From: a virus
Lineage: Duplodnaviria > Heunggongvirae > Uroviricota > Caudoviricetes
Length of the DNA stretch: 42,889 nt
Direction: 5' to 3' (one strand)
IMG/VR virus record: IMGVR_UViG_2703718853_000004
The notes below the pieces were generated by a model. That model saw nothing but the letters and a program-made list of their open reading frames with translations, was not told where the DNA came from and searched no databases. The position numbers were made by a program, and so were the translations under genes. Within the stretch, counting starts at the first letter, position 1. Each line of letters begins with the position of its first letter. This document shows, piece by piece, positions 24,038 through 27,256 of this stretch.

Positions 24038-24466
24038 TCAAGCTAAAACGCCGACCGTCTGTTTTTCTACTTTGTCTCTGGCCAGAGAAATGCAGAACCG
24101 CACAAACAGGGATGAAAGCGCATAACACACTGCGGTAAATACCCAGCCGCCGTAGGCAAGTAGAGCGATGGTCGCCATCATGCAGAACCAGCCCCACCAT
24201 CGAGCAATGACGTTCTTACGCCGGACAATCTTCCTCAGCGACTCCAGCACAGACTGACGTGATTTCTCATCAGTTATATGCTCTGCACCATGTGCGAGAA
24301 ATATTGTGATAATGCCAACCACCCCACCAAGAAATACCACCACCCAAAACGCAGCAGCAGCCACGTTAAGGACGTTGCTTTGCCCTGTGACCGACCCAAA
24401 AGCCAGCGCCGCAAGCAACGCGTAATAGAGGCCCTTATCAATCATGTCGATTAAAAACTTTTTCAT
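24038..24466 (-). CDS. Integral membrane protein (about 4 TM segments), function unknown
   Basis: 142 aa with four hydrophobic stretches; sits between the AT-rich cassette and terS. Confidence 0.45.
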   Translation of the reverse strand: MKKFLIDMIDKGLYYALLAALAFGSVTGQSNVLNVAAAAFWVVVFLGGVVGIITIFLAHGAEHITDEKSRQSVLESLRKIVRRKNVIARWWGWFCMMATIALLAYGGWVFTAVCYALSSLFVRFCISLARDKVEKQTVGVLA

Positions 24467-24575
24467 GCTGTTTTCCTTTTAGATGTGAGCCTGTCGCACG
24501 GCAGAGCCGCCGAAAGTTAACGGTTTGCCCAAGCTCACCGCTGAAATACTTTCTTTGATGTGCGCGAGCGATGCG

Positions 24576-24602
24576 CATAAAAAAGCCCCGCGATTGCAGG
24601 GC
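24576..24602 (-). terminator. Intrinsic terminator-like hairpin downstream of the AT-rich cassette
   Basis: Minus-strand GCCCTGC-aatc-GCGGGGC followed by TTTTTTA. Confidence 0.5.
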
Positions 24603-24635
24603 TGTATCTCATAAACTGAAAGTAAATGGATGAAA

Positions 24636-24902
24636 CTATTTTTTTATGTTTTCGAAAGTGGCTTCTACCATTTTCTTTCCAAACTCACCCATATCTTTAT
24701 ACATAACCTTTAAAAAGTTAATTGTGTTTGACGCTGCACCTTCCAATTTCCATTTACATGCAATAAAATTACAATTAATTAAATTAAAAGGCTGCAATCC
24801 TTTATATACAATTTCGCAATTTTCAAAAACGCACTTTTCGAAATGGTTGCCATCCAGTTCGACGACAGTATTATTAAAAGTGCTTGAAATAAATTTATTC
24901 AT
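24636..24902 (-). CDS. Small Cys-containing protein with period-5 (pentapeptide-repeat-like) hydrophobic pattern, AT-rich moron
   Basis: 88 aa; in VELDG/NHFEK/CVFEN/CEIVY/KGLQP/FNLIN/CNFIA/CKWKL every third pentad residue is hydrophobic; ATGA-coupled to the upstream membrane protein. Confidence 0.5.
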   Translation of the reverse strand: MNKFISSTFNNTVVELDGNHFEKCVFENCEIVYKGLQPFNLINCNFIACKWKLEGAASNTINFLKVMYKDMGEFGKKMVEATFENIKK

Positions 24903-25207
24903 ATTAATTCAAAGCCTTGCGTTGCATCAGTATCCTTGACATCATTACCGATCATTTTACCATTGGCCTGCATGAATCCTTTATCGTTGCTATAATCGCT
25001 TGGAGCATAAAGTGCAACATGATTAAAATTCAGCGTCAAAAAAAACACTATTACAAGCCCTGCCGGGAAAAACATTAAAAACCAAAGATATGTACTTTGT
25101 TGGGAATCATTAAGAAAAGGTAATACGAGGTTTGCAGAGACCTCTACTATCCCCGCAAAAATACCGATAATCGTTAACGGGTTTTTTATGTGGTTTATCG
25201 CGGACAA
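24899..25207 (-). CDS. Small 2-TM membrane protein, AT-rich moron
   Basis: 102 aa; hydrophobic segments about residues 10-32 and 38-60, then a polar C-terminal tail; very AT-rich codon usage. Confidence 0.5.
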   Translation of the reverse strand: MSAINHIKNPLTIIGIFAGIVEVSANLVLPFLNDSQQSTYLWFLMFFPAGLVIVFFLTLNFNHVALYAPSDYSNDKGFMQANGKMIGNDVKDTDATQGFELI

Positions 25208-25304
25208 CGCAGAACCCTCCTGAAATCATTTAGGGGGATTATATCAGCAACTAAATCAAAGAGCATCATCATAGGCAATAATTGAATGCCAGTTGTCATG
25301 CTTA

Positions 25305-25538
25305 TCATTTTGGAATGGTGACGGCTGTTGGTTTCTGGCAGTTCGCCTGCCAAGCTTTGTTATGCGCCAGGATGTCGCGCTTGGTCTGCTTATCCAGCAC
25401 GTCGATGTCGTGGTCGGTCAGGTAGATGATCCGCACCCAGCTGCAGGCCGTATCAACGACTACCGGGGCGGGTAAACTTTTCGCGCAGCTCCCGATCAAC
25501 ATCGTCATCAGGCATATGGCTAACGGTTTGCTGTACAT
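25305..25538 (-). CDS. Putative outer-membrane spanin lipoprotein (Rz1-like)
   Basis: Start at MYSKPLAICLMTMLIGSC (lipobox LIGSC) in an alternate frame overlapping the 3' end of the i-spanin-like gene. Confidence 0.4.
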   Translation of the reverse strand: MYSKPLAICLMTMLIGSCAKSLPAPVVVDTACSWVRIIYLTDHDIDVLDKQTKRDILAHNKAWQANCQKPTAVTIPK

Positions 25539-25728
25539 CGCTTGCCTCCTTCGTGACTTCTGCCTTACGTTCTGCTGCGGCGACGGTGGCGGCGGCATTC
25601 TCTTCGGTACGCTGCTGAACGGCTTTGGCTTGCGCCTTACTGGTCCCGCGAGCATGACCAATGCCGAACGCGCCAGCTATAGCGCCCAGGATGACGACCA
25701 CCAGACCAGAAATAATTTCGAAGCTCAC
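25453..25728 (-). CDS. Putative inner-membrane spanin (Rz-like)
   Basis: 91 aa; N-terminal TM segment then charged helical region; embedded lipoprotein ORF. Confidence 0.4.
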   Translation of the reverse strand: MSFEIISGLVVVILGAIAGAFGIGHARGTSKAQAKAVQQRTEENAAATVAAAERKAEVTKEASDVQQTVSHMPDDDVDRELREKFTRPGSR

Positions 25729-26072
25729 TGCTGCGGCTCCTTCAGTTCTTCGGCCTTAGCTTTCAATGCTGGCTGGCGTACGTATTGCGAAAGCACCGCC
25801 AGCACCACCAGCGCAGGGCTAATCAACGCAACAATGTTTGGAGGCAGAATGTTTTTGATATCCGGCGGCAGCATCGCCCAGGCGTGCAGCGCAGCATCCG
25901 GGAACGACTGCGCCCACATGCCAACCAGCGCACCGATAGCCCCCAGCTTTACAGACCACGTTTTCAGCAGCAGGCTGGCATGGGCAACGAACTCCAGCCG
26001 GGTATATTTGCGCAGCAGTAACAGAACGAGCACAGCCACCACCACGAGCAAAGCGAAGATGATCATCTTCAT
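25725..26072 (-). CDS. Lysis-associated membrane protein
   Basis: 115 aa hydrophobic protein ATGA-coupled to the endolysin gene. Confidence 0.4.
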   Translation of the reverse strand: MKMIIFALLVVVAVLVLLLLRKYTRLEFVAHASLLLKTWSVKLGAIGALVGMWAQSFPDAALHAWAMLPPDIKNILPPNIVALISPALVVLAVLSQYVRQPALKAKAEELKEPQQ

Positions 26073-26608
26073 AGCACGCGCTCCTTAACCCAGCCGTAGA
26101 GGAAATCCTCGTTGGCTTCGCGGCCCTCCGCCAGTTCGAGGTATCTGGCGCCCTGGCTGCAGTTCAGCGCACGTAACAGAACCTGTTCCCCCTCTTTCCC
26201 GCGGGCTGAAAGATATCCCTTAAGCGCAGTGATGGTTCGGGGGCCAATGGCGCCATCCGGGATCAGATCGGGATACAACTTCCCACGCATGTTAAGGGCA
26301 GTGAGCCAGCGCTGGAAAAACTTAATTGCAACCGATGGCCCCATGTTCACGCCAGTGTCGCAAAGCTCATCTGCCAGTAACGTAGATAAACTTGCCACCT
26401 GATCGAATCGGGGGCCGGTCCAGTAATCGCTGAGCAGAATTTGCTTTGCTGTTTCCCTGGGCAGGCTTCTCATATCACCGGTGTAACCATGTGCTCGAGC
26501 TGTGGTCTGCGTGATGCCCCAGCGGGTCGGCCCGCCTTTATCCGACGGATGATCGACATAACCGCCCTCTTTGCCGAGGATCCCCTCGATAGTCTGGTCT
26601 GCTTTCAT
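26069..26608 (-). CDS. Endolysin (GH108-type lysozyme with peptidoglycan-binding domain)
   Basis: EGGYVDHPSDKGGPTRWGIT matches the GH108 N-terminal signature; sits between holin and spanin genes. Confidence 0.75.
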   Translation of the reverse strand: MKADQTIEGILGKEGGYVDHPSDKGGPTRWGITQTTARAHGYTGDMRSLPRETAKQILLSDYWTGPRFDQVASLSTLLADELCDTGVNMGPSVAIKFFQRWLTALNMRGKLYPDLIPDGAIGPRTITALKGYLSARGKEGEQVLLRALNCSQGARYLELAEGREANEDFLYGWVKERVL

Positions 26609-26916
26609 TGTGCTTTCACTCCGGTGATTCGTTCCCAGAAATACGTGAGCGCTACGGAACCCATAGCACCACTGATACCGGCAGTGGCCAGTATCATGTA
26701 AATACTCAGGCCACCTTCAATGCTGATGAGCCCACCAATAACCCCGGTAAAAGCCGAAACCACAATCTGCGCAAAAGCATTTATCCAGCTCCATTTTGCT
26801 TTGCCCTGCTTTACATCCATCAGGAATCGGACAAGGCCGCCCCAACCAGCAATGATCAGCAGAACCAGCCAGGACATCCCGGCAATGCTCTCTTTGTCTT
26901 GCATACGCTTAGCCAT
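26605..26916 (-). CDS. Holin
   Basis: 103 aa with about three TM segments, GGAGG SD, first gene after the late terminators and overlapping the endolysin start. Confidence 0.6.
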   Translation of the reverse strand: MAKRMQDKESIAGMSWLVLLIIAGWGGLVRFLMDVKQGKAKWSWINAFAQIVVSAFTGVIGGLISIEGGLSIYMILATAGISGAMGSVALTYFWERITGVKAQ

Positions 26917-27181: not shown

Positions 27182-27256
27182 TGGCGGGACAGGAAGGATT
27201 CGAACCTTCTACCATTCGGTTAACAGCCGAACGCACAACCGCTGTGCTTCTGACCC
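27182..27256 (-). tRNA. tRNA-like gene, anticodon GTT (Asn), atypical
   Basis: Hand-folded 75-nt cloverleaf: acceptor GGGTCAG/CTGTCCC (one T-T mismatch), anticodon arm TTCGG-CTGTTAA-CCGAA, T-arm GAAGG-TTCGAAT-CCTTC, 3' GCCA; position 8 is A rather than U. Confidence 0.5.

Follow-up and report, generated by a model that had tools for sequence, protein, structure and literature searches.

The window, by which we mean the whole stretch of 42,889 nucleotides that was analysed, is a near-complete lambdoid prophage of E. coli. On its minus strand the Q antiterminator gene is followed by a tRNA-Asn (GTT, 27182-27256), a position at which this tRNA is also seen in related Klebsiella phages, and then by the genes for a holin (26605-26916), a GH108 endolysin (26069-26608), a DUF7940 protein (25725-26072), the i-spanin (25453-25728), and the lipoprotein o-spanin (25305-25502). 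Behind the spanin genes lie two small genes on the same strand, here called A (24899-25207, 102 aa, with a TTG start that agrees with the RefSeq CDS start) and B (24636-24902, 88 aa), which overlap in an ATGA at 24899-24902. The original prediction had described two ATGA-coupled ORFs, and this is borne out by RefSeq, where the identical prophage of E. coli strain ST361 (100% identity across the 701 bp of the cassette) carries the same two CDSs, each labelled 'hypothetical protein'. Of 5426 complete E. coli genomes, 35 carry this exact allele, at 99.9% identity or more; a megablast search of complete E. coli genomes with a divergent E. coli allele (L007) returned no match.

The pair had also been placed between the spanin genes and terS. 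It does follow the spanin genes, but terS, and terL after it, are reached only past another minus-strand gene (24038-24466) that encodes a 142-aa protein with four TM segments. This protein matches phrog_162 (E 3e-13), which belongs to the lysis category; the homologue from E. coli bears the Pfam label PF28015 LysA, and the protein itself scores 36.3 bits against NCBIfam NF038378, for which the cutoff is 40. Its probable role is to time lysis in the manner of P2 LysA, in which case the lysis module reaches beyond the cassette.

An AT-rich insert ahead of a backbone terminator

The cassette, comprising genes A and B and a candidate promoter on the minus strand, was delimited at 24605-25290 from the GC profile and the break in homology with Klebsiella phage GZ7, giving an inserted unit of ~690 bp. 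The AT-rich composition that had been noted for the pair was confirmed when overall and third-position GC content were computed. The cassette has a GC content of 34% compared with 52% for the window, and the GC profile falls to 0.29-0.39 over 24600-25300 between flanks at 0.50-0.60. The neighbouring genes have 0.53-0.74 GC at third codon positions, where A has 0.37 and B 0.31. Every copy of the cassette that we examined is AT-rich relative to its own flanks.

Phage GZ7 is homologous to the window on the packaging side, sharing the 142-aa gene, terS, and terL, and it lacks the cassette. Its spanin gene is followed directly by a GC-rich hairpin with a T-run, a leader of ~110-130 nt, and the 142-aa gene, and homology to the window restarts at the terminator. 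This empty site implies that the cassette went in after the spanin stop codon, in front of a terminator that was already there. In Citrobacter and in the 'EKP1' locus, where other genes lie upstream, homology begins ~95 nt before gene A, and the comparison of such copies with different upstream genes places the 5' edge of the insert near 25290. The intrinsic terminator itself (24577-24603, minus strand) has its hairpin at 24584-24603, with an 8-bp stem that includes 6 GC pairs, followed by a T-run. The pair had been credited with a terminator of its own; the same hairpin stands at the empty GZ7 site and in other prophages, which makes it a backbone element, although it is predicted to stop transcripts from the cassette promoter.

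At the upstream end of the insert lies a conserved block (25261-25290, minus strand) consisting of an inverted repeat, GGCA...TGCC, followed by TGATGATGC. The block is conserved in the window, in loci L001, L004, and L005, and in most IMG/VR copies, with the consensus TGAT(G/A)ATGC after the repeat, and it may act as an operator or insulator. A perfect extended -10 element, TGATATAAT, was read from the sequence at 25238-25246 on the minus strand, 39 nt before the start codon of gene A. Of 22 IMG/VR copies, 17 have the motif TGnTAnnnT 30-40 nt upstream of the start codon, and among them are some in which B is only 28-38% identical. A consensus promoter scan reported no minus-strand promoter at the cassette because the scan demands a -35 hexamer. 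The conserved motif makes an extended -10 promoter of the sigma-70 type, belonging to the cassette, a good candidate. A Shine-Dalgarno sequence for gene A, AGGAGG (25216-25221, minus strand), lies 8 nt before the TTG at 25207.

The foreign composition, the empty site, and the extended -10 element together qualify the cassette as a moron in the sense of Hendrix, with the promoter assigned by motif. Like other morons of this type, such as lambda bor after Rz, it is an extra AT-rich, self-promoted unit in a post-lysis slot that is missing from a related phage at the same site. It differs from them in borrowing its terminator from the backbone, and lambda Bor is unrelated to the cassette products, as neither A nor B has a lipoprotein signal.

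A natural disruption of the cassette was seen in E. coli EC5 (NZ_CP060969, positions 961-1658 of the locus). Here an IS1A element at the 5' end of gene A cuts A from its promoter and shortens it to 92 codons, while B is retained. This knock-out, in one of the 35 E. coli carriers, has no obvious consequence.

Proteins A and B

Protein A has hydrophobic segments at residues 11-29 and 41-59, in agreement with its original description as a 2-TM membrane protein. The N-terminus is slightly basic, the loop is acidic, and the acidic tail, which ends in QGFELI, with QGF-x-L conserved, has a net charge of -3; this charge pattern suggests that both termini are cytoplasmic. A is thus probably an inner-membrane hairpin of two TM helices with cytoplasmic N and C termini. 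It matches phrog_26238 (positions 6-85 of 303), and its homologues form at least 100 clusters from Enterobacterales, Vibrio, Aeromonas, Pseudomonas, Marinobacter, Paracoccus, and phages. Invariant residues are N-P-L before TM1, a Glu within TM1, F-P in TM2, L-N-x-N at the end of TM2, and L-Y-A-P-S-D directly after it, and the TM core stays unchanged all the way from Rhizobium phages to enterobacteria. Such conservation appears to exceed what a simple anchor needs and would be unusual for a mere anchor.

The A-type hairpin is also found joined to other domains. In P0055 it is fused to a winged-helix-like domain with the order helix-strand-helix-helix-strand-strand (pLDDT ~80-88). In Rhizobium phage RHEph21 the C-terminal domain carries a PD-(D/E)xK-like FDG...EVK motif, which at the level of this motif could make it a nuclease, and Pseudomonas phages F116 (gp41) and H66 encode A-type fusions whose C-terminal region is homologous to that of RHEph21. 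Other A-type proteins bear unrelated tails (150-160 aa), and A-type fusions occur in T7-like lytic phage as well. This pattern points to A as a reusable membrane module whose cytoplasmic domains can be swapped. In a Pseudomonas chlororaphis prophage (L015, 3319-4471) an A-type gene lies 34 nt downstream of the gene for an S24 CI-like repressor on the same strand, and its 156-aa product has a different tail and no B partner. Another A-type gene adjoins AbiJ_NTD4 and DUF2513 genes, and further ones occupy moron slots after lysis genes or past tail-spike genes at the prophage end.

Protein B contains eight consecutive pentads, VELDG, NHFEK, CVFEN, CEIVY, KGLQP, FNLIN, CNFIA, and CKWKL, with the centre residues L, F, F, I, L, L, F, and W and the i-2 residues V, N, C, C, K, F, C, and C. 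The eight pentads with hydrophobic centres and the recurrence of Cys and Asn had been remarked on before; we find such a run in only 82 of 20000 shuffles of B, which makes it uncommon by chance, and the protein has 4 Cys, 11 Asn, and a net charge of +1. AlphaFold2, run with 34 homologues, gave a model with pLDDT 96.2 and pTM 0.77, in which strands start at residues 2, 8, 13, 19, 25, 30, 40, 45, and 50 and helices span residues 55-70 and 72-87. The pentapeptide-like beta-helix that had been proposed is therefore also what structure prediction returns, in a minimal version. B is predicted with high confidence to be a pentapeptide-type beta-helix of ~2.5 coils (residues 2-53) followed by a helical hairpin (55-87), and would be cytoplasmic. 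The near-invariant residues of the family fall on core positions, with centres L16, F26, F46, and W51 and i-2 residues C29, C44, and C49.

Comparisons with known pentapeptide proteins gave distant matches. Foldseek returned nothing under E 1e-3, and almost all of its top matches were pentapeptide-repeat folds; BFVD contributed no more than giant-virus pentapeptide proteins and a pair of small viral relatives without a name. Among PDB sequences, a profile search matched AlbG (E 2e-4). Against Pfam PF13599 (Pentapeptide_4) B scores 18.8 bits (E 0.0017), below the cutoff of 38, and this model is matched at E ≤ 0.01 by only 8 of the 34 B-family members. B corresponds to phrog_26297, whose function is not annotated. 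B differs from the Rfr-fold proteins (Rfr32, AlbG, MfpA, and Qnr) in having a predicted ~2.5 coils only and a helical hairpin, in scoring under every family cutoff, in not being acidic, and in its obligate pairing with a membrane protein. Qnr and MfpA form dimeric rods from chains of 180-220 aa; B has 88 aa, with ~50 residues of predicted beta-helix.

In an exhaustive profile search the B family comprised 4009 representatives of clusters defined at 50% identity at E ≤ 1e-3; with the limit at E ≤ 1e-10 the number was 1799. Stand-alone proteins of 86-115 aa, with a median charge of -2, make up most of the family, and some members have an insertion that interrupts the pentad periodicity. No Pfam family covers the B family, and a Pfam search of ten fusion partners and relatives found nothing. 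B domains in other architectures, likewise with no Pfam match, were seen in P0138, P0256, and P0144 and in P0153, P0278, and P0218. These architectures include B placed after an unannotated N-terminal domain of ~220 aa that begins 'LYKY...GTLSD(F/Y)', and pairs of B in tandem, of which one continues into a C-terminal extension of 300 aa.

Pairing, distribution, and resemblance to known systems

An A-type gene lies immediately upstream of B in all 22 testable IMG/VR loci, which were found with a B pattern and in which B is 28-100% identical. The two genes overlap by 1, 4, or 10 nt or abut. Where dS could be measured, dN/dS for A and B is 0.04-0.26; elsewhere synonymous sites are saturated while protein identity is still 60-80%. 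These values show that A and B are real genes under purifying selection. In P0195 the two are fused, with an A part of 40% identity (E 8e-21) and a B part of 42% (E 4e-23) joined by a 9-residue link, in a metagenome sequence for which a frameshift artefact is possible. Matches of P0195 to prion proteins (E ~0.1) were set aside as noise. Three further TM arrangements occur in independent fusions with B domains, in P0174, P0212, and P0239, in P0145, and in P0277, which suggests that B acts at membranes. Strict synteny and the fusions argue that A and B form one functional unit. Distant B-family members without a recognisable TM partner do exist.

The distribution of the pair among related prophages was surveyed, as had been proposed. 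Prophages of Citrobacter, E. coli, and Salmonella all carry the pair in one and the same slot, behind the lysis genes. A Klebsiella pneumoniae prophage that was seen integrated at two different sites in the chromosome has it at one end, past the tail-spike gene, and a Vibrio chromosome has it with no phage genes in the vicinity. In L017 (1-8306) and L018 (3440-4300) the pair is part of a one-directional array of small ORFs with repeated attC-like elements, which suggests that it can travel as an integron-type gene cassette. The repeats have the form TTTTAAGTTGC...GCAACTTAAAA...CGGCGTTAGGTT, and in this stretch no IntI gene was seen, only an rve transposase. The 'EKP1' copy (L001, OM284015, 'Elizabethkingia phage EKP1', 3998-4575) is the same cassette at 70-76% amino acid identity, and this phage has the same backbone terminator and leader as the window. 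Its recorded host belongs to the Bacteroidota. EKP1, whose lambdoid genes (Q-type antiterminator, class II holin, lysozyme, and Rz) are at 47-53% GC, looks enterobacterial, and its recorded host may be an error.

Among NCBIfam models, the one that B matches best is HalA (NF051894), the Hailong effector, at E 1.1e-4, with residues 6-79 of B aligned to profile positions 81-147 of 338 at 21.5 bits against a cutoff of 250; P0139 matches the same model at E 5.8e-7. HalA is matched at E ≤ 0.01 by 26 of the 34 B-family members, and each Qnr-family model by two to three. Scores of the family against HalA are 21-29 bits, well under the equivalog cutoff of 250, and the match may reflect only a shared pentapeptide-like segment. 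Single-sequence searches of the PDB gave no readable HalA alignment. Tan et al. reportedly found in 2025 that a DNA-binding 'crown' of HalA gates its channel. HalA is a membrane ion-channel effector (PMC13276650). Protein A is not similar to HalA (PDB 9nyi), and the HalA model is 338 positions long, whereas our module divides over two proteins, of 102 and 88 aa. No HalB nucleotidyltransferase gene was found beside the cassette in the window or in the loci examined; the neighbours in the window are the spanin and LysA-like genes.

In lambda RexA/RexB and mycobacteriophage Sbash gp30/gp31 a prophage two-gene exclusion module combines a cytoplasmic sensor with a small membrane effector, as we propose for A and B, and lambda rexAB follows cI just as the L015 A-type gene directly follows a CI-like repressor gene. 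DUF4747 is found in Sbash gp30 and in RexA, whose membrane partners gp31 and RexB are four-TM proteins (PMC6426596). We had considered gp30 as a pentapeptide-repeat protein and dropped this on finding it to be DUF4747/RexA-like (PMC6426596); RexAB and Sbash are thus functional analogies only. They have no sequence or domain relationship to A and B, and in our cassette the membrane gene comes first and encodes two TM helices. Pfam and TM prediction identified neither a RexA-like DUF4747 nor a four-TM RexB-like feature in A or B. In PADLOC-DB v2 neither protein matches any defence model at E ≤ 1, no Pfam or NCBIfam family claims either of them, and literature searches with protein accessions and PHROG ids found no mention. 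The Gifsy defence protein GiPD474 is an unrelated ATPase. Judged by these searches, neither A nor B belongs to a described family and both the components and their pairing appear new, while prophage morons that have a membrane component and probably serve exclusion are a familiar kind of element.

Possible functions of the cassette

We favour the explanation that the cassette is a prophage moron encoding an exclusion module made of a sensor and a membrane effector, and put its probability at roughly 45%. Phage exclusion or lysogenic conversion had been suggested for the pair from the outset; it appears to be the best reading, and the context evidence strengthens it. A horizontally mobile moron of ~24605-25290 would have inserted between the spanin genes and the backbone terminator. 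With its own extended -10 promoter, recognised by motif, the cassette could be expressed in the lysogen, and its place within the minus-strand gene run downstream of Q means that it is probably transcribed late too. The translationally coupled A and B would bind each other and work as a unit on the cytoplasmic side of the inner membrane, with A as a membrane-perturbing effector (an ion leak or pore) and B as its cytoplasmic sensor or gate. When another phage infects the cell, A would be released or activated by B and would then depolarise the membrane and abort the infection, a logic like that of lambda RexA/RexB and the Hailong effector HalA.

A sensor or gate joined to a membrane-perturbing effector is favoured by the conserved A hairpin with its swappable domains and by a B that is related to a segment of HalA. 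An exclusion module is likewise favoured by the cassette's own putative promoter, the moron slots, and the A-type genes beside a CI-like repressor or AbiJ_NTD4/DUF2513. Several observations count against it. A-type fusions in T7-like lytic phage are odd for a protein that protects lysogens, PADLOC gave no match, the HalA scores are weak, and distant B proteins lack a TM partner. The IS1 insertion in one of 35 E. coli carriers is without obvious consequence, and a place inside the lysis cassette also fits a role in lysis.

An improbable alternative, though one of the two that survive best, is superinfection exclusion by a block to injection, in which A and B at the inner membrane would stop incoming phage DNA and the cell would not be killed, as modelled on P22 SieA, T4 Imm, and HK97 gp15. 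A is indeed a small inner-membrane protein from a prophage moron, its cytoplasmic partner domains have a sequence or topology that ties them to nucleic acids (the winged helix of P0055 and the PD-(D/E)xK-like domain of RHEph21), and one A-type gene adjoins a repressor. However, known injection blockers rely on phage- or host-specific contacts, whereas the TM core of A is invariant over Rhizobium, Paracoccus, Vibrio, and E. coli hosts, and the swapped sensor-like domains are closer to effector-sensor proteins.

An accessory role in lysis timing is about equally improbable. Here A would be holin- or antiholin-like and B its regulator, together tuning lysis with the LysA-like gene. This would suit the location of the cassette inside the lysis region of E. 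coli, Citrobacter, and Salmonella prophages and next to the P2 LysA-like gene, and the two TM helices of A, probably N-in/C-in, as in class II holins. Against this, GZ7 retains the holin, endolysin, spanin, and LysA-like set without the cassette, which has its own putative promoter and foreign composition, and the pair is also found at the Klebsiella prophage end past the tail-spike gene, in the Vibrio chromosome, and in the integron-like array. Holin C-terminal tails are basic, and the tail of A is acidic (net -3). A is not the constant part of the lysis cassette, with a basic C-terminus, that a class II holin would be, and no holin match was found in Pfam or PHROG.

Somewhat less likely still is a toxin-antitoxin or addiction pair, with A as a membrane toxin and B as its neutraliser, stabilising a mobile element. 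Two small, overlapping, mobile genes would fit, as would their presence in an attC-like cassette array, where toxin-antitoxin pairs are common; a natural A-B fusion and the fusions of A to other domains do not suit a separable toxin and antitoxin. The EC5 insertion, which removed the promoter and the 5' end of A, kept B, and was tolerated, is uninformative either way. This explanation overlaps with the exclusion module, as many abortive systems are toxin-antitoxin-like.

That B is a DNA mimic or anti-defence protein like Qnr and MfpA, inhibiting a DNA-binding enzyme or a defence system with A as its anchor, is very improbable even with its predicted pentapeptide-type fold, the B-family genes that lie close to a DNA polymerase gene in one phage region, and the precedent of a phage pentapeptide-repeat protein reported to counter the RexAB-like Sucellos system (bioRxiv 10.1101/2024.07.02.601686), since B has ~2.5 coils and a charge of +1, stand-alone members have a median of -2, its scores lie far below the Qnr (17 bits against 240) and Pfam cutoffs, and strict coupling to a conserved membrane protein is unexpected for a soluble mimic. 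The comparison with such mimics made in the original prediction is not upheld, and an anti-phage module is most likely in its place.

For the exclusion module we also put forward, tentatively and with some doubt, a more specific proposal. A and B may be a minimal, self-contained, two-subunit gated membrane effector and a new anti-phage system without a signal-synthesising enzyme, with B as the founding member of a miniature pentapeptide-type family of gates or sensors (at least 4000 clusters) that is related to a HalA segment and has repeatedly been wired to membrane modules in phages, prophages, and integron cassettes. If the cassette is a defence system, it would be among the smallest known, at ~690 bp and with proteins of 102 and 88 aa. 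Its carriers are prophages of clinical E. coli and of Salmonella, Klebsiella, and Citrobacter, which would make it relevant to host range in phage therapy. The proposal would also give a role to phrog_26297, phrog_26238, and thousands of 'hypothetical' 90-aa proteins, and would add the control of a membrane protein to the roles of the pentapeptide beta-helix, of which gyrase protection has so far been the main one known; a possible relationship with HalA provides a concrete structural hypothesis. Even if the function is not defence, the cassette would stand as a new two-component membrane module, given how strictly its halves pair and how both are reused in modular fashion.

A conserved non-coding leader (24467-24576, minus strand) lies between the backbone terminator and the 142-aa gene. 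Rfam gave only sub-threshold matches over 24300-25500, none of them covering the leader hairpin itself, and a GcvB match (31 bits against 42) over the terminator and AT-rich coding sequence was taken as chance. The leader is common to the E. coli, Klebsiella, Citrobacter, Salmonella, and 'EKP1' phages, and the genes downstream of it differ. RNAalifold folds it into a long hairpin (GTGAGCYTG...CAGGCTCAC) in which 6 pairs are kept through two-sided changes and whose 3' arm extends into the Shine-Dalgarno region.
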